Positions 1 through 43,002 of a stretch of DNA of 64,000 nucleotides are shown piece after piece (position 1 is the first letter of the stretch; every line of letters starts with the position of its first letter). The stretch covers positions 5,434,314 through 5,498,313 of the forward strand of contig OZ241378.1 of the NCBI GenBank assembly GCA_965200345.1, given 5' to 3'. Source of the DNA: Candidatus Poribacteria bacterium. GTDB taxonomy: Bacteria > Poribacteria > WGA-4E > WGA-3G. The notes below the pieces were generated by a model. The model searched no databases and was not told the DNA's origin. It saw nothing but the letters and a program-made list of their open reading frames with translations. A program made the position numbers and the translations under genes.

Positions 1-391
1 CCGCGGCGGCATCTATATCTGCTGTTGTGAGTGCCATGTTTGCGCGCGGTACAACGATAATACTGTTGTCGCCATCCGGTTCAATCACGATTGTTGCTAC
101 ACCTGTGCCGATGTCTGTACGTCTTGTGACAAACCTACTGTTAATATGTTCGTTTTCTGCTGCGGCGAGGAGCATCTCTCCGAAAGGATCAGCACCGACA
201 CTTCCAACAAGCGTAACTTCGGCACCTAACCGTGCAGCGGCAGTTGCCTGATTGAATCCTTTCCCGCCTGTGAAAATATCGAAGGCATCGCCGATGAGCG
301 TTTCGCCTTTATCGGGTCTCCGAGATGCGTGGCAGACCAGATCGATGTTCAGGCTGCCGACGACAGTAACTTTCGGTGTTGCGCGGTTCAT
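1..391 (-). CDS. rbsK: Ribokinase / PfkB-family sugar kinase, N-terminal part (3' end outside window)
   Basis: Own reverse translation from ATG 389-391: MNRATPKVTVVGSLNIDLVCHASRRPDKGETLIGDAFDIFTGGKGFNQATAAARLGAEVTLVGSVGADPFGE... GSxNxD and GGKGxNQA are the PfkB/ribokinase N-terminal signatures. Missing from the ORF track because the window edge cuts it. Confidence 0.7.
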   Translation of the reverse strand, partial: MNRATPKVTVVGSLNIDLVCHASRRPDKGETLIGDAFDIFTGGKGFNQATAAARLGAEVTLVGSVGADPFGEMLLAAAENEHINSRFVTRRTDIGTGVATIVIEPDGDNSIIVVPRANMALTTADIDAAA

Positions 392-427
392 TACCACTTA
401 TTCCTGTTCTTTTAACGATTTTTGACA

Positions 428-457
428 ATTATAGTTGACATGCAATGCTATTGTCAA
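428..457 (-). promoter_or_regulatory. Candidate sigma70-type promoter of the ribokinase gene
   Basis: Minus strand reads TTGACA (457-452), 18 nt, TATAAT (433-428), about 35 nt upstream of the ATG. The -35 hexamer is one arm of an inverted repeat, TTGACA (435-440) / TGTCAA (452-457). Confidence 0.4.
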
Positions 458-671
458 GGGATTATGGGAATTGGCGGTTAGATCCGTGCGTTGAAATCTG
501 AACTGTGATTTCTGTGATTGGTATGATTTTCGATGAGAAGCGGAAACGTTTCTTTGTATGGGCTACAGAAATGTTGCTTAGCTAACGGGTGGGGTCCCGG
601 TTAGGGAACCTTGCCAGCGAAAGGGGTTGCGTAAGTTTTGTTGATGATGGGGTATCTGCTTCGGACCAGCA

Positions 672-935
672 TCACCGACGCTGAGGGAAACCACAATCTC
701 TGCCGAGTGGCAGCCATCGGTGCATGTCGCGTTCTGGGAGGTGTCCGTGTTCTGAAATCAGGGAAGCTTGGTAGTAGTAGAAGTAGCTATCTGTCTCGGT
801 GAACTGTCCAACGGGGAGGCGTTCGATCCCTTGAATACGTATCCAGAAAGCAAGAAGTAGAAGGCTGCTTAAACCTAAAAGAAGGTAGATATTGCTTTGA
901 AGTTCTGATTTCTCAAAACTTTGGTTCAAATCCAT
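672..935 (-). pseudogene. Truncated copy of the STT3-like gene (first 80 codons) fused to the last codons of a PilP/GspC-like gene copy
   Basis: 71 of the first 80 residues are identical to the N-terminus of ORF 3965..5998 (my count). From about 695 leftward the DNA instead matches the 3' end and downstream region of ORF 3406..3918: cttcggaccagcatcaccgacgctgagggaaac versus ctttggaccagcgtcaccgacgctggaggaaac at 3393-3425. The C-terminus is ..FPQRR* versus ..FLQRR*. Confidence 0.75.
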
Positions 936-1196
936 ACTCGCGAAGTTTCTCTATATATTGCTTTACTCTCTGTTCGTCAGTGGTTCCTAGTACCTCTTGT
1001 TCCATCTGACTGAGGAGTGCCTCCATTTGCTCAGAGTAGCCTTGAGCTGTTCCTTCAGTCCTTGCCTTTTCAAAGAATGCGGACTGGATGAATTCCTTAG
1101 CAGCTGGCAACTGGCTCCGGTATTCTTCAAATTGACCCCTCCCAAACCTAAAGGATTGGGATTCCTTTGACGGAACTCCCAAGTGGTTCTTTTAGG

Positions 1197-1445
1197 TTAT
1201 ACCACGACGTCCATTTGACGTTCTGCGATACTGGCTTCTCTGACTCCCTTCAGCGTCGCAATCGTCCAGACGTTATCCTTGGGAGCTTGTTCGGGTTTAA
1301 TCCGAACCGACACGAGTGTAATCTCGCGGTGCGGGTCATCTGGCACACTACGGAAAATCACTTGAACCTTCGTGACCGACCGATACTTCTGGCAAGTATT
1401 TCTTGCTTCAGAACTTGAAATCTCAACAAAATCTGAACCTCGCAA
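1197..1445 (-). CDS. Hypothetical small ORF carried by the element (may be non-coding)
   Basis: Open frame of about 100 codons on the minus strand with no in-frame ATG (TTG at 1445). Identical in copy 2 (42469..42717). No catalytic motif recognised. The overlapping plus-strand ORF 1167..1418 looks like its antisense shadow. Confidence 0.3.
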   Translation of the reverse strand: MRGSDFVEISSSEARNTCQKYRSVTKVQVIFRSVPDDPHREITLVSVRIKPEQAPKDNVWTIATLKGVREASIAERQMDVVV

Positions 1446-1599
1446 GGTTTCAGGAATATCGTATCTTTCAACGTATTCGGATTTTGTGATGTTCGTTTTT
1501 AATGGATATTAGCCATAGTCATTCTGTCCTTGTAAGAGGGTGATTGAGACCAGTAGCAAGGTAGCTACTGCTTACACGTCTCAATCAATGACTATGTTA

Positions 1600-1628
1600 A
1601 TTATACTACATTTTTGACGAAATGTCAA
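1600..1628 (-). promoter_or_regulatory. Consensus sigma70 promoter inside the element
   Basis: Minus strand reads TTGACA (1628-1623), 17 nt, TATAAT (1605-1600). A long interrupted hairpin follows at 1541-1587. The same sequence is at 42872-42900 in copy 2. Confidence 0.5.
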
Positions 1629-2431
1629 CTCTTTTTTTAACTATAGCCCCATGGTCTAATTCAATAGGGCGGTTCTGTATCCCAAAGCTAAAGCATTGGG
1701 TTTTAGAACCGAAAACGTAGATAAGCCTGTTGTTCCTCAGCCGAGAGCGCATTGAGTTTATCTGCCACTTTATAATATCTCTGTTCGTAATTCCTCTTAA
1801 GTGTATTATGTTTCTCTACTATGCGTGCTAGTGAATTTTGTGTCTCACGCATCGAATCCTCGAGCCTGCGTATTTCAGTCTGAATTTCCTCCTTTTTCTG
1901 TTCGGTTTCTTCTTTTGATGATACTTCATCGTTTTGCTGGAATGTCTTCAAGTCGGAATCTTGTTGACCGAATTCTCCAGATGTGGTACTTGGATCTGAA
2001 GGTGAGATTGACACAGATTTTGGGGAGGGATACGTATCCGCCGTTTCTGTGCCTTTCTGAAAATTTGAATTACTAGGCGTGTCCCTTGAAGGCAAGGCTG
2101 AGGTATTACTAGGAGCATCCTCTTTGACAGGCTCCGTGACACGGTATATCTTAACGGGGTCCTCGTTTTTCCGCATTCCGTCACAACCAAAGTAACATAT
2201 CATGCCACTTATGATTGTAAAAAATAAAAATCTGGAACTAAGAGATAAAAATTTCCGCCATTTCTGTAACATGTTTTCCTTCTTTGTTTTGATGTGCGAA
2301 TTTGAGACGAACGTCCTTCTTTAGAAAAGAGAGACGTTCATCTAAAACAGATTAGAATACTAAGCACTGCAAGGATCGCGACAGTGTATAGGAAGTAGGT
2401 ATCTTTCATGCAATATCCCCCAAGGGGTGCC

Positions 2432-3169
2432 TTAATCGGGAAGTTGAACCCCATGTGTGCGGAGTAATTCTGACATCCGATTCTGTAATTTTTCGGCTTC
2501 CTCTGGGGACTCCGTCTCCGTGGATACTGTTGATAGTAAAAGCGCAGAAAATTCGCGTTGTGTTTCGGTAGGTAGTCCCTTCAACTGTTCCACGATGCGG
2601 GGCATTACCGTGTCGAAATAAATGTCTGTTTGACGACGTAGTTCTTCTTCCGGCATGCCATCTTCCAAGTCTAGCAAAAAATTATCCAGAAATTCTGTGG
2701 CGATACTCTGTCTAGCGAGTGCCCCAGGTATCATTTTTAGGAACCTTTCATTTTCTGCTACTATTCTCTCATACTCTTCTTGCCTTTTGAGTTTTCTCAA
2801 ACGTTCCTGCTCGTCTTGTTCGGAGGACATCTGTTGCGTTTCATCAGGTAAGTTGAGCGAATCACCATTTTCAACACCGGTAGCCGTTTTCTCTGAAGTT
2901 TTGTGGGATGATGCACCATCTGCTTCAACGAAAACGTCCCGATTGGTATCCAGATGAGTACCAGTAGGTGTTGCTGTCTCACCTTTTTCCGCTACCCCGG
3001 TGGCAGTTTTTTGGGTGGGTTGTACAGGTTTATATACTCGGATGGGATCGGCATTTAACCGAGGGCGGACATAGCCAAAGTACCATGTAGCAGCACCTAA
3101 GACAATAAAACATAGTCCGCCAATAATAGGAAAAGTCCACTTCTTTTGGGGTTTTTCTATCTTTAGCAT
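2432..3169 (-). CDS. Single-pass membrane protein with acidic/coiled-coil C-terminal region (divergent paralog of 5976..6734)
   Basis: Start moved to ATG 3169 (MLKIEKPQKKWTFPIIGGLCFIVLGAATWYF...), preceded by GGTGGAG. Shares the post-TM motif DPIRVYKPVQP with DPVKIYRVTEP in the paralogs. The track's upstream extension is a duplicated uORF/promoter region. Confidence 0.6.
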   Translation of the reverse strand: MLKIEKPQKKWTFPIIGGLCFIVLGAATWYFGYVRPRLNADPIRVYKPVQPTQKTATGVAEKGETATPTGTHLDTNRDVFVEADGASSHKTSEKTATGVENGDSLNLPDETQQMSSEQDEQERLRKLKRQEEYERIVAENERFLKMIPGALARQSIATEFLDNFLLDLEDGMPEEELRRQTDIYFDTVMPRIVEQLKGLPTETQREFSALLLSTVSTETESPEEAEKLQNRMSELLRTHGVQLPD

Positions 3170-3210
3170 ACTCCACCTCTTTGATCTATCTTCGGTAACG
3201 CAATGGGCCT

Positions 3211-3320
3211 GATGTCCCAAGTTAGTGTGTTCGTCATTGAATTTTCCTATTATATTGAGTTTAGCAATTGATATCAAGAAAAAATCGTTTTTGATATCAG
3301 GATACAGTTTCTAACCAAAC
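3211..3320 (-). promoter_or_regulatory. 110-bp duplicated promoter/operator block, copy A
   Basis: Differs at only 4 positions from 7203-7312. Minus strand has TTGATA (3277-3272), 17 nt, TATAAT (3254-3249). Two palindromic boxes, TTGATATCAA (3268-3277) and TTGATATCAG (3291-3300), are 23 bp apart centre to centre. Confidence 0.5.
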
Positions 3321-3405
3321 GATTCTTTGGCCGGCTGCTATTAACCGGTGGTGATCCTGATTGGAAATCTCGCCAGCAAAAGGGGATATTCGCTTTGGAC
3401 CAGCG

Positions 3406-3918
3406 TCACCGACGCTGGAGGAAACTGCTCTTGAGTGTGAGCTGCCTCCGCTGTCCGTTCTTTTTCAGCGTGACGTGCTTGGTTTGGATGTCGGTGACGT
3501 GGGTCTCGGTGTCAAGTGTATCACCGGTAGTGACGGTGTATGTCTGATTTCGGACGATGTTTTGGATGATGGCTTTCGGAGGGATCTTTGTGTCTGTGGG
3601 GATGATGGTTCCAAGCAAGCGATAGGGTTCTTGTGGACGTGGTGGTGTCCAACCCAACGGACGGAAGAGATTGTGGTCAATGATGGTGCGGTAGAAATCG
3701 GAGTTCTGGAAGTGCTTTAATTCCACGTCTTCGGTTGGAAAAGTGGAAGATTGGAAGTGGGCACGCGGTGGGGTTGTGCTGACTGTCGGGTGCGTTTGTT
3801 TTTTGATAGTTATCGTTGTATTTTTGGGGTGCGTGTACATGGCGGTGTAGAGTAAAAAGAGTATCGCGAGGGCGAGACTGGCGGCGAGACCGGCAGTGAT
3901 GTATTTTCGGTGTTTCAT
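3406..3918 (-). CDS. Membrane-anchored PilP / GspC-N-like protein
   Basis: N-terminal TM (ITAGLAASLALAILFLLY). Then NLFRPLGW...YRLLGTIIP....KAIIQN.....YTVTTGDTL....VTDIQTKHVTLKKNGQRRQLTL, the pattern of the PilP/GspC small beta-domain (PF-RP, L.G.., A.I, Y..GD.L, V..I....V.L..G....L). Recognised by motif memory only. Confidence 0.4.
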   Translation of the reverse strand: MKHRKYITAGLAASLALAILFLLYTAMYTHPKNTTITIKKQTHPTVSTTPPRAHFQSSTFPTEDVELKHFQNSDFYRTIIDHNLFRPLGWTPPRPQEPYRLLGTIIPTDTKIPPKAIIQNIVRNQTYTVTTGDTLDTETHVTDIQTKHVTLKKNGQRRQLTLKSSFLQRR

Positions 3919-3964
3919 GAGGTTAAGAATAAGTGACAGTGGGTGATGATGTTTGCTAACATTT

Positions 3965-5998
3965 TTATTGAAGGTGTAGAGCCTCGTCTATTTCTGGGAA
4001 GCCGGTTTCAAGGTATTTTGGATCGGTTTTGATGTCCGGTGGATAGTGAATTTCCCAGGCTTTTATTGGGGCATCGTCGAAATCTTTCTTTGGATAGACC
4101 GGTAGAAATGCGTCACTTAGATCCCGATGCAGAAAAGAACGGCTTGGGTCCTTTCCTGTGAGCATAATGTGTGTTGCGCCGTGGGTTTTTAGGTATTCTA
4201 ATACTTCGTTTTCGGAAGTGGCGTTGTGGACATGTTGGTTATAGAGAAGTATCCAGTTTTGGAGATAGGTGTCTTGGTCGATGATAGTTTTGACACCGCC
4301 AAGTACGTTGAGTTGACTGCCATAGCCCCAATGTGCGGCAACAATGGCGGTGTTGGGGAGCGTTGTCTTCATATAGTGTAATGCATTTGTCACGTCAGTT
4401 ATCGGCGTTGCTTTCCGCATGCGGGTTGCAGCGTAAATGGCGCGCGTGGCGTGTGCACCAAGAGGCGGAAAGAATAGGATCCCTGCCAGCAATAGACTCG
4501 CGATACAGGTTTTGAGTAGTCTCTGTTGTTTGCTTTGTTTGACTTTACGGGTCAGAGCATTGGAAAAGAGGTGTATGATTTCTGCGGTAAAGAAGGCGAG
4601 CGGCACGCCGATAAAGAAGTCGTAGCGTTTGGCATCCCGCGAAAGTGCAACCCAGAAAACAAACCATGCTGTAAAGGCGACAATCGTCATCAGACGCGGT
4701 TCGTTGGATTTTTGGAGCCATGCACTGATAAGAAATCCTATTCCTGTACAGATAATAGCAATGGCAAAGAAAAAAGTGCCGTAGGATGCGTTCCAGAGAT
4801 ATGTTTCAAGCGGTTCACGGAAAAAGGTGGTAGCGATGAAAAGGACGAGCGGGACGAGCAGATAGGACTGCTCCCACTGCAGTTGGCTGGCAACGATGAG
4901 CCCGAGACTCCCGAGCATAAAGACACCGCCGTATCTGAAAACCCAATACCCGAAATGTGGGTTTCGGAGTTCTGTCATCGCGGTCATCACTGCGTTTTGG
5001 CTCAGTGGGACGGTGGTATCCGCAAAGGTGTTTTGTTGTGTCCAGACATAGCCGAGGACAAGCGTAGCACTCACAAGTATCAACCCGAATGACACGGTGC
5101 GTGCGTATGGACGTAGGCGGCCTATTTTTGAGATGAGCAGATACCGAATTGCTCGCATTGCCAAAAGGACAATAGGCGGCAGTAACACAAACGCTGCGAG
5201 GTGTTCAGCGAAGCCGTAGCCATTTCTATATGCTGGTGAGGCGAGGTAAAGTGTCGGCACAAAGCAGCACACCCACAGCGCATAAAGACCTAATCCTTCC
5301 TCTGTTTCAGATGTCAAAAACCGCCACAGCTCCACAACGATGATGACGCTCAGGAACACGCCGAAGCCTTCCCAACTGATACCACCGAGAAAGACAGTAA
5401 AGCCACTGATGAGTGTCCAAATCAGGCGTTTTCGTGGTGTTTCCGCTTTGAGCGATACGAGATAAGTGACGACAGCAAGGATACCGAGCATCAGACAGAA
5501 TGCGTCTCGGTCGCCGAAGCCTGCGGTGGAACGTTCTATACTACCGGGCAGTGTAGCCAAAAGTATACCGATAACGCTTGAAAAGAGAAGTCCATAGGTG
5601 TGGTACAGATAAAGACAAAGCACACCGAGACCGATACAGAAGCATAAGACCGGCATGTAGAGACAGACGTGGTAAAGCGTGATATTCGGGGATACCCACG
5701 CGATGGCTTTGTGGATATAAGCGAGGGCGTAGCCGTAAAGGTTTAGGGTTTGTCCTAAATCTCTACCAACAGGCAGCCATCGGTTCATATCTCGGTCTGG
5801 TAACTCTCCGTGTTTAGAAATCAGAGAAGCCTGATAGTAGTAGAAGTATCCATCTGTCTCGGTGAACTGCCCTATGGGGAGGTGTTCAATCCCTTGAATA
5901 CGTATCCAGAAAGCAAGAAGTAGAAGGCTGCCTAAACCCAAAAGAAGGTAGATATTGCTTTGAAGTTCTGATTTCTCAAAACTTTGGTTCAAATCCAT
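3965..5998 (-). CDS. STT3/PglB/AglB-like GT-C oligosaccharyltransferase-family membrane protein
   Basis: 677 aa, about 13 predicted TM segments plus a C-terminal soluble domain. First loop TETDGYFYYYQA resembles PglB ISNDGYAFAEGA. GDRDAF (DxD) resembles PglB YDTDML. AAHWGYGSQLNVLGGVKTIIDQD (4319-4333 encodes HWGYG) resembles PglB [21 protein letters not shown]. Confidence 0.55.
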   Translation of the reverse strand: MDLNQSFEKSELQSNIYLLLGLGSLLLLAFWIRIQGIEHLPIGQFTETDGYFYYYQASLISKHGELPDRDMNRWLPVGRDLGQTLNLYGYALAYIHKAIAWVSPNITLYHVCLYMPVLCFCIGLGVLCLYLYHTYGLLFSSVIGILLATLPGSIERSTAGFGDRDAFCLMLGILAVVTYLVSLKAETPRKRLIWTLISGFTVFLGGISWEGFGVFLSVIIVVELWRFLTSETEEGLGLYALWVCCFVPTLYLASPAYRNGYGFAEHLAAFVLLPPIVLLAMRAIRYLLISKIGRLRPYARTVSFGLILVSATLVLGYVWTQQNTFADTTVPLSQNAVMTAMTELRNPHFGYWVFRYGGVFMLGSLGLIVASQLQWEQSYLLVPLVLFIATTFFREPLETYLWNASYGTFFFAIAIICTGIGFLISAWLQKSNEPRLMTIVAFTAWFVFWVALSRDAKRYDFFIGVPLAFFTAEIIHLFSNALTRKVKQSKQQRLLKTCIASLLLAGILFFPPLGAHATRAIYAATRMRKATPITDVTNALHYMKTTLPNTAIVAAHWGYGSQLNVLGGVKTIIDQDTYLQNWILLYNQHVHNATSENEVLEYLKTHGATHIMLTGKDPSRSFLHRDLSDAFLPVYPKKDFDDAPIKAWEIHYPPDIKTDPKYLETGFPEIDEALHLQ

Positions 5999-6734
5999 AC
6001 TCGCGAAGTTTCTCTATATGCTGCTTTACCCTCTCCTCATCAGTGGTTTCTTGTATAGTTTCTTCAATCTGATTGAGGATTACCTCCATTTGTGCAGAGT
6101 AGCCTTGAACCTCTGCTTCAGTCCTTACCTTTTCAAAAAACGTAGAATTGAGAAATTCCTTAGCATTCACCGTTTCACGTCGGTACTCTTCAAAGTAAGC
6201 GGATTGTTCTTCAACGGAAAGAGAATTGAGTTTCTTTGCCAACGCGTATTGGCGTTGATCATCTTTCTCTATCAGTCTATTGAGACGCCCAAATAGATCG
6301 TCTCTTTGTTGTTGAGTTTCACGTATTAAAGATTGTGCCTCCTCTATTGCCTCCTCTATTTTATGTGGGCGTTCTGATTTTACTCTTGCTGATTCTTCGT
6401 AGGTTTGTTTGGACGCGTCTGTGGTGGAGGGTTGCTGCGCGAATTTGCTTAGTGTCTCAGATGGATTCGCGTTTTTGGAACCTTCATCTTCAGATAGGCT
6501 TGGCACAGGCTTTTCGGAAATATCAACCTCTGCTGTTTCTGGAATTGCCTGATGTAAGAGGGATTCGGCAGAACCAGCAGTGTCTTTTTTAGCGGGTTCC
6601 GTGACACGATATATTTTCACGGGATCCTTGCTTTTCCGCCTGCTGTCAAAACTCAGATAACAGAGCCCACTGAAGACTATCAGGCATAAAATTCCCAGAC
6701 TCAAAACTATACGCTTCCATGATTTCCCGAACAT
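5976..6734 (-). CDS. Single-pass membrane protein with low-complexity linker and coiled-coil C-terminal domain (function unknown)
   Basis: 252 aa. TM at IVLSLGILCLIVFSGLCYL, then the DPVKIYRVTEP motif, an acidic/Ser-Thr linker and a heptad-like C-terminus. Its stop overlaps the STT3-like start by 23 nt (..GFEPKF* / MDLNQSF..), which suggests translational coupling. Confidence 0.6.
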   Translation of the reverse strand: MFGKSWKRIVLSLGILCLIVFSGLCYLSFDSRRKSKDPVKIYRVTEPAKKDTAGSAESLLHQAIPETAEVDISEKPVPSLSEDEGSKNANPSETLSKFAQQPSTTDASKQTYEESARVKSERPHKIEEAIEEAQSLIRETQQQRDDLFGRLNRLIEKDDQRQYALAKKLNSLSVEEQSAYFEEYRRETVNAKEFLNSTFFEKVRTEAEVQGYSAQMEVILNQIEETIQETTDEERVKQHIEKLREYGFEPKF

Positions 6735-6842
6735 ATTTCACCTGTTTATTTTTCTGTATGAATTTGAGATGAACATTCTTCTTTAGGAAGGAGAGACGTT
6801 CATCTCAAAAAAATAAAACTTATTCACAGTCGGTAGTAAGGT

Positions 6843-7229
6843 TTAAGCGCAGCTCCCGCTGTCGCAACCTCCGCTATCTGCTTTCTTGGCTTCGAGACAG
6901 TCCACTAAATTCTGTAGCAGTTGAATAAAACTGTTTGACATTGTCTCATAAAATTCTGCGGCAGCTATAGCAGCCTCCCTTGCAGCATCTATAAGTGCTT
7001 GATCCCCTGTTTGTTCCGCTAAAGCCAATGCTCCTACTGCTGCTAGAGCGGCCAGATATGCTGCTTGCTGTATGAGGTATGCATAAGCTACTTGCTCCTT
7101 TAATTCGTCACAAGCCACAGCAACGGAGTTTGCTGTTACAAAAATTATCGCGCAAAGCACAATAAAACTTATCACGCTGAGCAGATTTGTATTGATTGAT
7201 TTGATGTCCCAAGTTAGTATATTCGTCAT
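6843..7229 (-). CDS. Small secreted/membrane Ala-rich helical protein with Cys-rich C-terminus
   Basis: 128 aa. Hydrophobic N-terminal segment LLSVISFIVLCAIIFVTANSVAVA, an Ala-rich helical core and the tail KKADSGGCDSGSCA. AGGAG lies 6 nt upstream of the ATG. First gene after the sigma factor. Confidence 0.5.
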   Translation of the reverse strand: MTNILTWDIKSINTNLLSVISFIVLCAIIFVTANSVAVACDELKEQVAYAYLIQQAAYLAALAAVGALALAEQTGDQALIDAAREAAIAAAEFYETMSNSFIQLLQNLVDCLEAKKADSGGCDSGSCA

Positions 7230-7312
7230 TGAATTCTCCTATTATATTGAGTTTAGCAATTGATATCAAGAAAAAATCGTTTTTGATATCAGGATACAGT
7301 TTCTATCCAAAC
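7203..7312 (-). promoter_or_regulatory. 110-bp duplicated promoter/operator block, copy B
   Basis: See 3211-3320. TTGATATCAA boxes at 7260-7269 and 7283-7292. The block includes the AGGAG RBS and the first 9 codons of ORF 6843..7229. Confidence 0.5.
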
Positions 7313-7413
7313 AATAGCGTTTGGGTGAACTTCGCAACTGTTGCGAAGTTCCTTAGTTAATTGCCGACACCGACTGAACAGGAGTCAATCTGTGTCAGCA
7401 TTTTAGTGAAAAG

Positions 7414-8261
7414 TTATCTCTCCTTCTTAACCATTGCGGAGACGGGATCCGTGGGATTGTCCTTCGCGGCTTTCTTCCAATCCTTTATCACACGTTTCAC
7501 TGTCTTCTCAATGGTGGAACGAGAGGGACCGAGTGCTTCTGTAATCTCCGAGAACGATTGTCTATCGAAGTACCGTTCCATAATTTTTCTGTCGTTCGCC
7601 TCTGGGAGGCAGTTTATCAACGCTTCTAAGTTGCGTGCGATAGGGAACAACCACTTGCGGACACGTTCCCATGTTTTCTGAACTGATCCAGAGTTCTGTT
7701 CCTTATCCGCTTCAGAGGTAGAGGTTATCACTTCTGCTATCTTTTTCGGCTTTAGCCCATCCAGTAGAAGGTCTACGATTTCTCGGTGCTGATCTTGGAG
7801 GAGACGGAAAAGTTGGGCTTCCAGAACCTCCTTTGCTTCGGCATCGGTTCCGGCGATCAGCGTTTCGCTTTCGCTGTTGGAAAGCGTGTTAAGCGGGACA
7901 ACTTCCAAGTGTCGCTTTTGGCGTGATTTTCTTATCGCGTCAATCATGAGATTTTCCGCGACTCTTTTCAACCACTCCAACAACTTCTCCGGTTCTTGGA
8001 TTTTTTCCGTTTCTTGACGGCTTTAATGAACGTGTCGCTGGTGATTACATCGGGATCTACGACGGTATCTGGATGATTCCATCGCCTTCTTTTAACTGTG
8101 TTGAAGACGGTTTCGTAATACGCGTTGAAGAGTAATCTACATCCCTCCTCTTCATCATCCGTTTCTACAAATCGCCGATTTAAACAAACATCGTTCACTT
8201 TTCTGACTACGCACCCCACCTCTTCGGAAATAAAGTTATGGCTGGCTTCATATATAATCAC
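7414..8261 (-). pseudogene. ECF-like sigma-70 family factor interrupted by a 1-nt frameshift in an A6 run
   Basis: ORF 7968..8261 carries region 2 (LLFNAYYETVFNTVKRR...DVITSDTFIKAVKK). ORF 7414..7983 continues it in another frame (..IQEPEKLLEWLKRVAENLMIDAIRKSRQ) and ends with the region 4 HTH (QSFSEITEALGPSRSTIEKTVKRV). The frames meet at GGAAAAAATCC (T-run 8001-8006 on the plus strand). One extra A would fuse them. Confidence 0.65.
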
Positions 8262-8608
8262 GAAAGTTTTGCTTAAATTCCGACACAGTATGTATTTTTT
8301 TTGAAGATAAAAAGGGAATTCGGTAATTTTCTGACATCTTGTACTCAGTTTGCGTAAGCTCTATTGTATTTCATGTAATGCGAAACAAAAATAGAGGCTT
8401 CATATTACTATAACGCGTATGTTAGGACGAAAGGTTGCATCAAATAAACATTTTGGAAGGAAATGTGTTTCTCTAAAGGAGCAAGGTTCGTAGTCGCGCG
8501 ATCTACAGAAGATAGGTGTATTGACAGACCAAAATTCGTGAAATCTGCGCAATCCACGTCATCCGCGATTCAGACACCTAAAAACTGAGTGCCGCTGGCA
8601 GTTTTGGC

Positions 8609-8637
8609 TTGCAAGCAACACTAAGAACTGCTATGAT
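8609..8637 (+). promoter_or_regulatory. Candidate sigma70 promoter of the NhaC-like transporter gene
   Basis: TTGCAA (8609-8614), 17 nt, TATGAT (8632-8637), about 45 nt upstream of ATG 8681. Confidence 0.35.
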
Positions 8638-8680
8638 GCACATAGGCGAGAACGGATAAATCTTACGAATTCAAAGGGAT

Positions 8681-10378
8681 ATGCCGAGGACGCTGATGAA
8701 TTCTAAATTAAAATATGCGATTGGTTTTTTAATTTTTTTCGGACTTTGCTTCATTTTTCAGTGGCGTGCAGGGCAGGTTAGCGATGCTGAAACGCTTGTC
8801 TGGTACAGCATCATCCCACCGCTGCTTGCTGTCACATTAGCGATCGTAACAACCCGATTGTTTCCGAGTCTCTGTATAGCAGTCGGTGTTGGACTTCTGC
8901 TCTCGTGGTATCAGAACGGTGCTACACCGAGCGGTTTCTTGGCAGAAACTGTCTGGTTCGTCCGTGCTGTGAGTGTCGGAAATGATGGGATAGATCTCTT
9001 CAATTTCTGGGTAGTGTTGTTTGTTTGCCTTATCATGGCGACGATCTCTGTTGTGATCGCCTCCGGGGGCATTGGCGGTGTGGTTGTCTGGCTCTCTCAG
9101 TTTGCGAAGGGGCCGCGTTCGGCGCAATTTATCACGGGTTTGATGGGGATCGTCATCTTTATTGGAGATTATTCCAATGCGATGCTCGTCGGACCGACAA
9201 TGCGTCCGCTCACCGACCACCATCGCGTCAGCCGTGAAAAATTGGCATTCCTTGTGGATTCGACAAGTGCCCCGATTGCCGGTCTCGCGTTTGTTAGCAC
9301 CTGGATCGGTTATGAAGTGGGACTCTTTGAAGATATATCGGGGACACTTGGGCTTGGGCGTGACGGGTATTCCATGTTTTTCGATGCCCTCAGTTTCCGG
9401 TTTTACTGTGTGTTGACCATCATTTTTGTTATCGTCAATGCGATCAGTGGCAGAGATTATGGAGCGATGCACCAAGCCGAGACGCGGGCGCGAGAGACAG
9501 GAGATATTGCTGCCCCGGATGCCGAAGCACTCGGACACGCCGGATCTTTTACCAGTCTACCCAACGCCGTTGTCCAACCCTTTTCGGCGGTTTTACCACT
9601 TTTAACGCTTTTTGGGTTGCTATTGGGTGGTTTTTGGATTGATGGCAACGGTACGGGGTCTATTCTGTCGCTAACATCTTGGCGGAACGCGCTTTCAGAG
9701 GCGAACAATGTGATGGTGCTTGCTTGTGCGGCAGCAAGTGCATTTGTCGTCGCGATCATCTGTGCACGTTGGCTCTCAAAGTTACGATTTTCGGAGATCG
9801 CGCCGGTCGTTTGGAACGGTATAAAGGGGAGCCTCACACCGTTGAGCATTCTGTTATTGGCGTGGGGGCTGAAAGCGAGTTGTGATAGACTCATGACAGG
9901 CGATTTTCTGGCTACGATGCTCAGTGATGTTGTATCGCCACTCTGGTTTCCGATCTTCGTCTTTATCTGCGCATCTGTGACCTCTTTTGCGACCGGTACG
10001 AGTTGGGGCACGATGGCGATCCTGATTCCGACTGCGATTCCAGTGGCGTTTTCGCTTGATGGCGGTAGTTATGGACTCACGACAATCATTTGCCTCGGTG
10101 CGGTGCTGGATGGTGCCATCTTTGGAGATCACTGCTCGCCGCTTTCGGATACAACGATTTTGAGTTCTATCGCCAGCAGTTGCGACCCGCTGCACCATGT
10201 GCGAACCCAATTGCCCTATAGCCTTACTGTCGCAAGTATTGCGCTGTTTTGCGGTTATCTTCCTGCCGCGCTTGGTATCTCTTCAGCAGTCGGGATTGCA
10301 TGTGGGACAGCCGTAATTGTTTTGCTGTTTTATGCGGTTGCAGGCTTTCGTAAAATTCAAGAAAGGAAAATGCTATGA
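8681..10378 (+). CDS. NhaC-family Na+/H+ antiporter-like membrane transporter
   Basis: 565 aa polytopic membrane protein. YSNAMLVGPTMRPLTDHHRVSREKLAFLVDSTSAPIAGL is typical of the NhaC-type antiporter C-terminal domain. Long antisense ORFs in the track are shadows. Confidence 0.6.
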   Translation: MPRTLMNSKLKYAIGFLIFFGLCFIFQWRAGQVSDAETLVWYSIIPPLLAVTLAIVTTRLFPSLCIAVGVGLLLSWYQNGATPSGFLAETVWFVRAVSVGNDGIDLFNFWVVLFVCLIMATISVVIASGGIGGVVVWLSQFAKGPRSAQFITGLMGIVIFIGDYSNAMLVGPTMRPLTDHHRVSREKLAFLVDSTSAPIAGLAFVSTWIGYEVGLFEDISGTLGLGRDGYSMFFDALSFRFYCVLTIIFVIVNAISGRDYGAMHQAETRARETGDIAAPDAEALGHAGSFTSLPNAVVQPFSAVLPLLTLFGLLLGGFWIDGNGTGSILSLTSWRNALSEANNVMVLACAAASAFVVAIICARWLSKLRFSEIAPVVWNGIKGSLTPLSILLLAWGLKASCDRLMTGDFLATMLSDVVSPLWFPIFVFICASVTSFATGTSWGTMAILIPTAIPVAFSLDGGSYGLTTIICLGAVLDGAIFGDHCSPLSDTTILSSIASSCDPLHHVRTQLPYSLTVASIALFCGYLPAALGISSAVGIACGTAVIVLLFYAVAGFRKIQERKML

Positions 10379-42403: not shown

Positions 42404-42992
42404 TTGACCCCTCCCAAACCTAAAGGATTGGGATTCCTTTGACGGAACTCCCAAGTGGTTCTTTTAGGTTATACCACGACGTCCATTTGACGTTCTGCGA
42501 TACTGGCTTCTCTGACTCCCTTCAGCGTCGCAATCGTCCAGACGTTATCCTTGGGAGCTTGTTCGGGTTTAATCCGAACCGACACGAGTGTAATCTCGCG
42601 GTGCGGGTCATCTGGCACACTACGGAAAATCACTTGAACCTTCGTGACCGACCGATACTTCTGGCAAGTATTTCTTGCTTCAGAACTTGAAATCTCAACA
42701 AAATCTGAACCTCGCAAGGTTTCAGGAATATCGTATCTTTCAACGTATTCGGATTTTGTGATGTTCGTTTTTAATGGATATTAGCCATAGTCATTCTGTC
42801 CTTGTAAGAGGGTGATTGAGACCAGTAGCAAGGTAGCTACTGCTTACACGTCTCAATCAATGACTATGTTAATTATACTACATTTTTGACGAAATGTCAA
42901 CTCTTTTTTTAACTATAGCCCCATGGTCTAATTCAATAGGGCGGTTCTGTATCCCAAAGCTAAAGCATTGGGTTTTAGAACCGAAAACGTAG
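42404..42992 (-). mobile_element. Non-autonomous IS200/IS605-like element, copy 2
   Basis: Identical to 1132-1720. The same CTTAT flank sits at 42997-42993 (minus strand). Contains the same promoter (42872-42900) and small ORF (42469..42717). Confidence 0.65.
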
Positions 42993-43002
42993 ATAAGACA
43001 TC

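Follow-up and report, generated by a model that had tools for sequence, protein, structure and literature searches.

A locus on the minus strand of a 64,000-nucleotide stretch of a Candidatus Poribacteria genome (the window; assembly GCA_965200345.1, contig OZ241378.1, positions 5,434,314 to 5,498,313 of the forward strand), lying between window positions of about 590 and 8261, carries genes for an extracytoplasmic function (ECF)-type sigma factor, a small exported protein with conserved cysteines (the Cys protein), a bitopic membrane protein, an STT3-like enzyme and a GspC/PilP-like protein (unit 1), followed by a partial second set (unit 2). The locus is one of a multi-copy cassette family, found here in Candidatus Poribacteria only. 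The reading we favor, at a probability of about 0.45, is that this is a sigma-linked STT3-type cassette whose enzyme would glycosylate the exported proteins encoded beside it, with unit 2 representing what is left of further cassettes. Within the oligosaccharyltransferase (OST) family the enzyme forms a new, motif-divergent branch, and the sigma and HR-domain components (the latter carrying a homology region, HR, of the GspC type) are new members of known folds. The window was analyzed by six-frame listing of open reading frames (ORFs) and by repeat finding, and every element listed by the original prediction, which had been made from the letters alone, was recovered at the same coordinates.

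A scan of 185,579 species genomes, one per species, gave 163 relatives of the STT3-like enzyme, and the 80 loci kept from these all come from Candidatus Poribacteria, with up to five loci per genome among the 80. In a collection of 5.8 billion proteins the enzyme has 907 relatives, the best 120 of which are all at least 60% identical to it, every named one being Candidatus Poribacteria; among 1.84 billion cluster representatives it has 702 clusters at E ≤ 1e-3. No paper describing the cassette family was found in the literature searched on Poribacteria, oligosaccharyltransferases, sigma factors and WWDYG homologs, and none of the family libraries searched holds the gene combination, its multiplicity or its variable partners. 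The suggestion that the combination is not a described system thus agrees with the literature searched.

Assignment of the enzyme draws on a family profile, fold comparison and conserved acidic residues. The gene at 3965-5998 (minus strand) encodes a 677-aa glycosyltransferase of the GT-C type, in the STT3/AglB/PglB family, which matches PF02516 (STT3) over residues 45-345 at 47.1 bits (cut-off 24.5; E 3.2e-12) and has a predicted layout of many transmembrane (TM) helices and a C-terminal periplasmic domain. The domain calls of the original prediction held for this gene, as they did for the sigma factor and the HR-type domain discussed below. Because the enzyme scores only 43.4 against the 450 required by TIGR04154 (archaeo_STT3), it falls outside that subfamily. 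A profile of the enzyme family searched against the PDB matches the C-terminal domain of yeast STT3 (2lgz, E 3.8e-4), and in a Foldseek search of the PDB with an AlphaFold2 model the top 16 matches were human and yeast STT3, A. fulgidus AglB and C. lari PglB (E 1e-8 to 1e-4, TM-scores of about 0.4), with DPY19 and Pmt4 ranking next. The model, built from 48 sequences, is weak (mean predicted local distance difference test score, pLDDT, 61.8), and for that reason no residue-level structural conclusions are drawn from it. The motifs TETD49GYFYY, GFGD163RD165A and MTE343LR are invariant in 48 close relatives, and D49, D163-x-D165 and E343 keep at least 90% conservation across 31 representatives whose identity falls to about 20%; we take these to be the metal- and donor-binding residues of PglB and AglB (the Asp of external loop 1, the DxD, and the external loop 5 Glu of TIxE/SVSE). 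The ratio of nonsynonymous to synonymous divergence (dN/dS) of the enzyme against its orthologs is 0.15-0.20, denoting purifying selection.

The WWDYG motif of OSTs binds the Ser/Thr at position +2 of the acceptor sequon. It is absent from the window enzyme, which has AAHWGYG at that position, and the profile alignment to 2lgz pairs AAHW(s)YG of the enzyme family with AAWWDYG of yeast STT3. Close clusters carry AWSYG, NWSYG, DWRFG, AWNYG, HWAYG or HWTYG there, the first and third positions varying, and a sister group of STT3-like proteins of about 900 aa (25-31% identical; P0283, P0288, P0300, P0309) has an intact AAWWDYGS. We interpret the enzyme as a working GT-C glycosyltransferase of OST descent that has ceased to read the N-x-S/T sequon.

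The neighborhood of the enzyme is conserved beyond the window. ORFs from 82 loci (numbered L001 onwards) were clustered into families (c2, c4, c6, c11, c16 and c18), and the five-gene neighborhood, whose co-occurrence in other genomes the original prediction had offered as its check, is conserved in the orthologous Poribacteria loci L004-L009 and L088-L090. These are bordered by a Na+/H+ antiporter gene on one side and a PfkB-family gene on the other and share one order: the sigma factor, a small exported protein (c18; c16 in L009), a bitopic protein (c6 or c4), an optional c2 gene and the enzyme, after which there usually follow a CDP-alcohol phosphatidyltransferase gene (PF01066) and then the GspC-like gene. 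In the wider family, neighbors were counted in 56 paralog loci with full flanks, with 136 genes as control. The gene directly upstream of the enzyme encodes a bitopic protein in 35 of the 56 loci, versus 11 of 136 (8%) in the control, and in 14 loci there is an overlap of 4-56 nt between the upstream gene and that of the enzyme. A small protein with TM segment and cysteines is encoded upstream of the enzyme in 40/56 loci, a sigma factor no more than 7 kb away in 29/56, and the phosphatidyltransferase in 22/56. The GspC/PilP-like gene accompanies the enzyme in only 9 of the 56 loci. Other paralog classes are found beside fusions of about 980 aa that join an ECF sigma factor, a TM segment and BNR repeats, beside sigma-54 activators, DUF6785 membrane proteins or ATP-binding cassette (ABC) permeases, or beside a short-chain dehydrogenase/reductase (SDR) with a small family 2 glycosyltransferase (GT2). 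As the SDR and small GT2 genes adjoin the enzyme in some paralog loci, a donor in the form of a polyprenyl-phosphate-linked sugar fits. In loci L026-L053 (e.g., L028 1433-4363) the STT3-like paralogs are flanked by the fusions of about 980 aa, which have BNR/Sortilin-like repeats and often occur in two or three copies, and these are accompanied by a small SNase-like protein and a six-Cys exported protein of 85 aa.

The proteins encoded just ahead of the enzyme are the most variable part of the cassette. The Cys protein (6843-7229, minus strand; 128 aa) is exported, with a conserved leader of 17-20 aa (MTN(I/T)LTW(D/N)(I/F)K..), a hydrophobic segment ending AVA/C, a variable Ala-rich helical core, which in some family members is very hydrophobic, and the C-terminal tail SGGCDSGSCA (family form SG[GS]C[DN]SG[GS]C). 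It has only 15 homologs among the 5.8 billion proteins, with identities of 100, 86, 83 and 81% and then at most 49%. The bitopic protein TMCC1 (5976-6734, minus strand; 252 aa) consists of an 8-aa cytoplasmic N-terminus, one TM helix, the motif DPVKIYR, an S/T/P/E-rich linker and a helical C-terminal part ending in EKLREYGFEPKF, and its gene overlaps the start of the STT3-like gene by 23 nt. Bitopic proteins of the family in general share a short cytoplasmic tail, a single helix, a juxtamembrane (D/E)P[VI]x[VI]Y[KR], a linker rich in S/T/P and a C-terminus that is helical and closes with a (Y/H)G(F/Y/V)xP-like motif. Within the window the form DP[VI][KR][IV]Y[RK], which the original prediction had pointed out after the TM helix, is present in all three TM proteins, and both units have the 23-nt overlap that it reported (GFEPKF, stop, over MDLNQSF). 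For TMCC1 no Pfam family reaches its cut-off, and Pfam and NCBIfam searches likewise gave nothing above cut-off for the other TM/helical proteins, the Cys protein or families c2, c4, c16 and c11. A glycocin-like or other ribosomally synthesized and post-translationally modified peptide reading of the Cys protein was set aside, the cassette having no cytoplasmic GT2, SunS-type enzyme, peptidase or ABC exporter.

Between species the flanking genes are about 80% identical, whereas the Cys and bitopic partners are of sharply different types. Relative to the window, the orthologous loci show 78-87% identity for the enzyme and 72-85% for the GspC-like protein, but 35-52% for the Cys protein (81% in L090), and at the TMCC1 position there is a bitopic protein that is 24-51% identical (71% in L090) or belongs to the non-homologous family c4. 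In L009 both the Cys and the bitopic positions are taken by non-homologous families, though the enzyme is 78% identical. Where partner types are shared, synonymous divergence (dS) against L090 is 0.18 for the Cys gene and 0.26 for TMCC1, versus 0.50 for STT3, and for the second bitopic gene of the window, TMCC2, it is 0.37, 0.19 and 0.25 against L004, L007 and L088, versus 0.68, 0.56 and 0.56 for STT3 in the same pairs. Because the dS of shared partner types lies below that of the flanking enzyme, the cassettes appear to have been exchanged between lineages, and the comparison suggests such exchange for the partner genes in particular.

For an enzyme that would modify these proteins, the acceptor site would probably be something other than the usual sequon: there are no N-x-S/T sequons in the Cys protein or TMCC2 and only one or two, non-conserved, in the other partners. 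A candidate pointer to the site is the SG[GS]C-type tail common to the otherwise unrelated c18 and c16 families: SG[GS]C or G[GS]C[DNS]S occurs in 7/8 Cys-family (c18) and 3/10 c16-family proteins, versus 6/1164 other genes. The juxtamembrane motif and the S/T/P-rich linkers of the bitopic proteins are further candidates.

Put together, the favored glycosylation reading would run as follows. The sigma factor would drive the downstream operon from a GGAAC..GTTC-type promoter; the enzyme, at the periplasmic face, would use a polyprenyl-phosphate-linked sugar and transfer it to the co-encoded exported proteins without using an N-x-S/T sequon; the overlapping bitopic protein would be the partner or the substrate of the enzyme, and the HR-domain protein could act as a periplasmic scaffold. 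Several points weigh against it. The window locus has no genes for glycan assembly, a flippase or an initiating transferase. The GspC-like partner is scarce among the paralog loci and its gene is also found beside sigma and bitopic genes in loci without the enzyme, so that the enzyme may be accessory to another system. The equivalence of the catalytic site comes from motif alignment, the structural model of the enzyme being poor, and the ECF promoter is assigned from its motif alone; 60 nt downstream of that motif there is a conserved sigma-70-like promoter, which alone is retained in unit 2. Pfam and NCBIfam revealed no anti-sigma domain in any protein neighboring the sigma factor. The window itself has a frameshifted sigma gene and a deleted phosphatidyltransferase gene, and for these reasons its cassette copy may be partly inactive. 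Unit 1, which the original prediction had set against a decayed unit 2, is thus eroded as well.

The sigma gene (7414-8261, minus strand) is read as two ORFs, 7968-8261 and 7414-7983, split by a 1-nt frameshift in an A6 run near 7985-7990, inside region 2; its true start is likely near 8219. The downstream ORF scores 49.1 versus 42.9 for TIGR02937, 23.3 versus 21.1 for PF07638, and 26.0 for Sigma70_r4_2. In L005, L006, L007, L009 and L088 each ortholog is one uninterrupted ORF (264-276 aa) reading through KRK(E/K)IQEPEKLLEWL, and an intact ortholog scores 44.6 for PF07638, 50.2 for Sigma70_r4_2 and 22.2 (below 24) for Sigma70_r2. The intact ortholog in L005 (5724-6539) has region 2 followed by two region-4-like helix-turn-helix (HTH) motifs (141-188 and 210-246), an unusual layout for an ECF sigma factor. 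The frameshift may be an assembly error in a homopolymer, which is possible because all three assemblies carrying the locus are long-read. L001 and L002, which come from other assemblies of the window's strain, have the same cassette arrangement. Alternatively, the A6 run could be a slippage site. An anti-sigma role of the CnrYXH kind for the Cys or TM proteins was rejected, as their cytoplasmic parts have only 8-15 residues.

Between the sigma and Cys genes lies a regulatory block (7230-7413, minus strand) that is conserved across species. It contains a hairpin, the motif GGAACTT-N14-GTTCAC (7325-7352), a second hairpin CCAAACG..CGTTTGG, a sigma-70-like promoter TTGATA-17-TATAAT (7269-7241; conserved form TTGA(T/C)A-17-TA(T/C)AAT) overlapped by a palindrome, and an AGGAG ribosome-binding site at its end. 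The motif in its general form GGAACTT-N13/14-GTTCAC, equivalent to AAC-N16-GTTC, resembles an ECF promoter; it occurs once in the window versus 0.02 expected, and its 17 hits in 1.33 Mb include positions just downstream of a sigma gene of about 270 aa in 15 loci. The palindrome, TGATATCAAAAA ... TTCTTGATATCA, found at 7241-7300, at 3249-3308 and at the equivalent positions of L003, L088 and L090, overlaps the sigma-70-like -35 element, and its arms covary between species (GATATC to GATGTC/GACATC), which points to a hairpin or to the operator of a dimeric regulator.

Downstream of unit 1, four direct repeats bear out the colinear duplicated blocks of the original prediction, at 84-96% identity for three and 71% for the fourth: 695-1102 with 5758-6165 (85.5% over 408 nt), 2130-2347 with 6595-6809 (71%), 3210-3323 with 7202-7315 (95.6% over 114 nt) and 649-691 with 3383-3425 (84%; the GspC tail and its flank). 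Unit 2 begins with a copy of the promoter block and a remnant of a Cys gene (3163-3340, minus strand), identified through the 114-nt repeat. This copy does not have the GGAACTT..GTTCAC motif and retains the sigma-70-like promoter. The Cys remnant (3163-3237) is a 24-codon upstream ORF, MTNTLTWDIRPIALPKIDQRGGVC, whose stop overlaps the ATG at 3169, as had been noticed from the letters. That ATG starts TMCC2 (2432-3169, minus strand; 245 aa), an intact bitopic paralog that is 86-89.5% identical at the nucleotide level and 81-83% identical at the protein level to genes in four other genomes (L004, L006, L007 and L088). With a dN/dS of 0.24-0.46, TMCC2 is under purifying selection, so that its inclusion in the decay of unit 2, as first proposed, does not stand. 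The overlap between the upstream ORF stop and the TMCC2 start would allow coupled translation behind the retained sigma-70-like promoter, and TMCC2 is probably still expressed.

The rest of unit 2 is more heavily damaged. A remnant of a gene of the c2 family of small TM/CxCC proteins (2338-2409, minus strand; about 22-23 codons, MKDTYFLYTVAILAVLSILICFR and a stop) was recognized by comparison with L007, where, as in many other loci, an intact c2 gene stands between the TM protein and the STT3-like gene. It is followed by TMCC3 (913-2347, minus strand), a third bitopic paralog traced through the repeats, with an upstream region (2273-2347), an N part (1721-2272) and a C part (913-1131) that the ORF listing reads as 1703-2272 and 913-1182; a mobile element is inserted between ...EEQQAY and FEEYR.... 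TMCC3 resembles TMCC1 at its two ends only (71% and 85.5% at the nucleotide level), and the N-terminal two-thirds, core included, are about 35% identical at the protein level. Last comes STT3', the first 80 codons of an STT3-like gene (695-935) fused to a GspC tail (649-691) and together spanning 649-935 on the minus strand (ORF 672-935). Alignment reproduced the reported identity to the intact enzyme over these 80 residues (71/80 aa; 88% nt). The join at about 695 to the end of a PilP-like gene copy proved to be an in-frame fusion to its last six codons and 3' flank (...GRD/CGFPQRR, then a stop), and the sequence at 300-691 corresponds to what normally follows the GspC-like gene in L005 and L007. 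Against the intact gene STT3' has a dN/dS of 0.18 and a dS of 0.36, a sign of purifying selection during its divergence, and it would therefore derive from an old or imported functional copy and not from a recent duplicate. Just downstream of the unit 2 remnants, at 428-457 (minus strand), there is a perfect consensus promoter, TTGACA-18-TATAAT, facing the PfkB-family gene that runs off the window start.

The two halves of unit 2 have different nearest relatives. Its 3323-3188 segment is colinear with the main cassette of L007 (L007 3032-3170) at 92.8% nucleotide identity, and 3182-2343 follows at 89.5%, with the Cys-gene body of about 430 bp missing; the nearest relative of this promoter-to-TMCC2 half is L007 (89-93%), and apart from the 114-nt block nothing in unit 1 corresponds to it. 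STT3', by comparison, is nearer to the window STT3 (88% nt) than to any ortholog (at most 83%). Unit 2, with its truncated Cys, c2 and STT3 genes and one element-broken gene, thus reads as a mosaic and not simply as a decayed copy of unit 1: a partial unit does follow unit 1, as the original prediction held, but only its 3' half, from about 2347, resembles unit 1, the 5' half being like L007. Under the glycosylation reading, unit 2 would be what remains of further cassettes at a recombination-prone locus, in which an L007-type front half, with its Cys gene deleted and its TM gene intact, was joined to a unit-1-like TM gene that was later broken by the mobile element, followed by the enzyme stub and the GspC-like tail.

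A fuller array is seen in L088 (enzyme 87% identical; 646x coverage). Its first unit is complete; the second has a truncated sigma gene, intact Cys and TM genes, a frameshifted STT3 fragment of 303 codons and a full GspC-like gene; and a third promoter block precedes a Cys gene that carries another internal deletion (MTNTL...DDDSGGCDSGSCG, then a stop) and a TMCC2-type gene. On account of this array the locus is one at which cassettes have long been duplicated and recombined and have decayed in a lineage-specific way. Repeatedly the TMCC2 type has been kept, and its Cys partner has been lost twice, independently, in the window and in L088.

Such an array raises the question of whether the partial downstream units serve as a store of alternative partner genes whose cores are recombined into the expressed site, with the promoter block and Cys leader as one arm and, as the other, the TM gene's 3' end together with the initial 240 nt of the gene for the enzyme, in the manner of the silent pilS copies of Neisseria or of orphan toxin/immunity modules in contact-dependent inhibition (CDI)/Rhs systems. 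The confinement of the TMCC1-TMCC3 similarity to the ends of the genes speaks for this, although conserved ends are also expected from functional constraint alone (a TM helix and an enzyme-docking tail). The TMCC2 type stands in the main position in L007 and downstream in L004, L006, L088 and the window, the Cys homologs fall into discrete identity classes, and the Cys body has been deleted independently in the window and in L088 with promoter block and TMCC2 kept; however, no switching event was observed, L001 and L002, from the same strain, being arranged identically. The dS of same-type Cys, TMCC1 and TMCC2 genes (0.18-0.37, versus 0.50-0.68 for the enzyme in the same genome pairs) is likewise in keeping with core replacement, but gene conversion or codon constraints in short genes could also lower it. 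As donors, moreover, TMCC3 is broken by the element and the Cys remnant of the window is too short to supply a core, and the arms, at 71-88% identity, are low for efficient recombination. On balance we regard switching as unlikely, though a serious alternative.

A second alternative places the acceptor elsewhere, and it begins with the phosphatidyltransferase. Between the STT3-like and GspC-like genes of the window, comparison with relatives reveals the first 15 codons of a CDP-alcohol phosphatidyltransferase gene (3915-3962, minus strand; MLANIITHCHLFLTS and a stop), which is intact at 183 aa in L004, L009, L011 and L088-L090 (PF01066, 4.9e-19); L005 shares the deletion with the same junction. 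The enzyme might accordingly build or decorate a membrane glycolipid or envelope polymer for which the phosphatidyltransferase would supply a lipid acceptor or head group, with assembly or regulatory roles for the small proteins and the HR-domain protein. ArnT, PimE and EmbC are GT-C enzymes with lipid or polymer substrates. No other enzymatic neighbor is as common as the phosphatidyltransferase, whose gene lies directly after or before that of the enzyme, several paralog loci have an S-adenosylmethionine-dependent methyltransferase, an SDR and a GT2, and the sequon-binding WWDYG is lost. Yet the C-terminal domain of the STT3 type is kept and the closest structural matches are enzymes of protein N-glycosylation; the tightest linkage is to the exported proteins; and loss of the phosphatidyltransferase from the window and L005 has left the enzyme under purifying selection. 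A lipid or glycan acceptor is for these reasons doubtful, in our estimate.

The GspC/PilP-like protein (3406-3918, minus strand; 170 aa) consists of a TM helix at the N-terminus, a linker rich in Thr/Pro and an HR-type beta domain at the C-terminus. The Pfam match to T2SSC (1.8e-5, 25.1 bits) is just under the cut-off of 27, and since its score for NF041515 (GspC_delta) is 19 versus 150, it is not an equivalog of that family. The beta domain is modeled by AlphaFold2 at a pLDDT above 90, and its top Foldseek matches are PilP (3jc8_Pa, E 1.6e-3), the HR domain of GspC (3oss_C, E 5e-3; target-normalized TM-score, TMt, 0.79), the HR domain of PulC (6hcg_e, TMt 0.70) and LspC. With 364 homologs in which the C-terminal domain is strongly conserved (few of them named, all but one of these Poribacteria), the ORF is a real gene. 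Public gene calls on identical DNA (L001, L002) nevertheless annotate an antisense ORF of 119 aa at 3361-3720 (plus strand) in place of 3406-3918, which is why the exact protein of the window strain is missing from the protein collection. The Thr/Pro-rich coding region shows a strong GC skew (up to 0.45). In L085 (8001-9127), L086 and L087 a GspC-like gene stands directly upstream of a sigma gene of 194 aa, with a 4-nt overlap, and bitopic proteins are present in these loci with no STT3-like gene; IS605-type TnpB and Y1 transposase genes lie nearby.

These matches to PilP, GspC and PulC would also suit an envelope-spanning fibre or secretion-like apparatus, with the HR-domain protein in the role of PilP or GspC, the bitopic proteins as counterparts of PilN/PilO or GspL/GspM, and the Ala-rich exported protein as a pilin-like subunit glycosylated by the enzyme, much as AglB modifies the pilins and archaellins of archaea. 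Glycosylation of archaeal pilins by AglB is reported (PMC5131992) and counts in favor. The topology of the bitopic proteins, with a short cytoplasmic tail, resembles that of PilN/PilO, but their helical C-terminal parts match no PilN/PilO family. Some members of the Cys family have very hydrophobic, helical cores, which would suit a pilin-like subunit, and the Cys protein of the window has a weak Pfam match to CagC, a VirB2-like pilin (E 0.022), which is, however, far under its cut-off; no class III signal peptide motif is present. No secretin, ATPase, platform protein or prepilin peptidase gene was found in the window locus or in the related loci fetched, and a fibre or secretion apparatus must be considered very unlikely. 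We give still less credence to the view that the genes are neighbors by descent only and unit 2 is functionless duplication debris, for which it can be said that all functions are inferred, that partner content varies widely among paralog loci, and that unit 2 comprises three truncated genes and one element-broken gene, because the association with bitopic proteins is about eight-fold above control and persists across paralogs only 52-65% identical and in unrelated genomic contexts, genes overlapping by 4-56 nt are seen repeatedly, different species share the conserved regulatory block and TMCC2 is under purifying selection.

The element that interrupts TMCC3 (1132-1725, minus strand) is 594 bp long, and a 100% identical copy lies at 42404-42997, both directly after CTTAT. 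Besides subterminal hairpins CCCAA-N9/10-TTGGG it contains a long hairpin and, internally, the consensus promoter TTGACA-17-TATAAT (1628-1600, minus strand), and its 82-aa ORF (1197-1445, minus strand) has no match in Pfam or PADLOC. The ends and target preference resemble those of non-autonomous elements of the IS200/IS605 type, to which it may belong. A 96-nt piece of it is 77% identical to L031 13373-13467. In L002 at 8590-8660, on a 2x-coverage contig of the same strain, there is an uninterrupted junction, GCTTAT directly followed by TTTGAAGAATACCG, and then the element interior from window position 1406 on; this hints at an empty site in the population, whether as a population variant or rearrangement, or else reflects a chimeric low-coverage assembly. 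PADLOC gave no credible defense-system match for any protein of the module or for the element ORF, and an Rfam scan of window positions 1-9000 returned a single chance-level match (ARRPOF, 18.5 versus 127 bits).

Among bacteria, STT3-type enzymes have mainly been described in Campylobacterota and in some Desulfobacterota; in these groups a general pathway of N-glycosylation relies on a single PglB. Here, an uncultured phylum of sponge symbionts has several STT3-type paralogs per genome, each with its own sigma factor and fast-changing exported proteins, and WWDYG lost. If the enzyme glycosylates its partners, this would constitute a new acceptor specificity for an OST, of interest to glycoengineering, and would point to variable surface glycoproteins as a feature of sponge-symbiont biology. 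A bolder version, in which Poribacteria possess an undescribed envelope glycosylation system built on a sequon-independent STT3-type enzyme that accepts many laterally exchanged types of exported protein, with swappable downstream orphan cassettes and a dedicated sigma factor for each copy, we consider distinctly improbable; were cassette-swapping glycosylation true, it would be a programmable system of surface-glycoprotein variation in a sponge symbiont. The locus is in any case a clear natural example of cassette duplication, recombination, exchange of parts between lineages, and decay.

In relation to known systems, the window enzyme shares PF02516, the layout of TM helices and C-terminal periplasmic domain, and the acidic residues with PglB of Campylobacter and Desulfovibrio, AglB of archaea and eukaryotic STT3, but has HWGYG where these have WWDYG. 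Unlike PglB and AglB, it has no pgl- or agl-type glycan assembly genes beside it, its co-encoded candidate substrates are without conserved sequons, and enzymes of its type come as several paralogs in one genome, every one with a sigma-linked cassette to itself. With the three-component systems (GtrA/GtrB/Gtr-type GT-C, ArnC/ArnT and Ppm/Pmt) it would share a GT-C enzyme at the outer face of the inner membrane, and a small GT2, a possible maker of polyprenyl-phosphate sugar, lies beside the enzyme in some paralog loci, though not in the window locus; the GT-C here is of the STT3 type with an STT3 C-terminal domain, and no GtrA-like flippase was seen. The GspC-like protein has the same layout of anchor, linker and small beta domain as GspC of type II secretion and PilP of the type IVa pilus, but is without a PDZ or coiled-coil domain and is linked instead to an STT3-like enzyme, a sigma factor and bitopic proteins. 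Like other ECF sigma operons, the cassette has a group IV sigma factor with regions 2 and 4 and a GGAAC...GTTC-type motif directly downstream, ahead of genes for envelope proteins; it differs in having no recognizable anti-sigma domain, a sigma factor of about 270 aa with a second region-4-like HTH, and a sigma-70-like promoter and covarying palindrome in the same block. As in the orphan modules of CDI/Rhs systems and in Neisseria pilE/pilS, truncated downstream copies keep conserved pieces beside divergent cores and the same core types stand at different positions in different genomes, whereas here no toxin, immunity or pilin homology was found and the stored copies include an intact gene behind a promoter.

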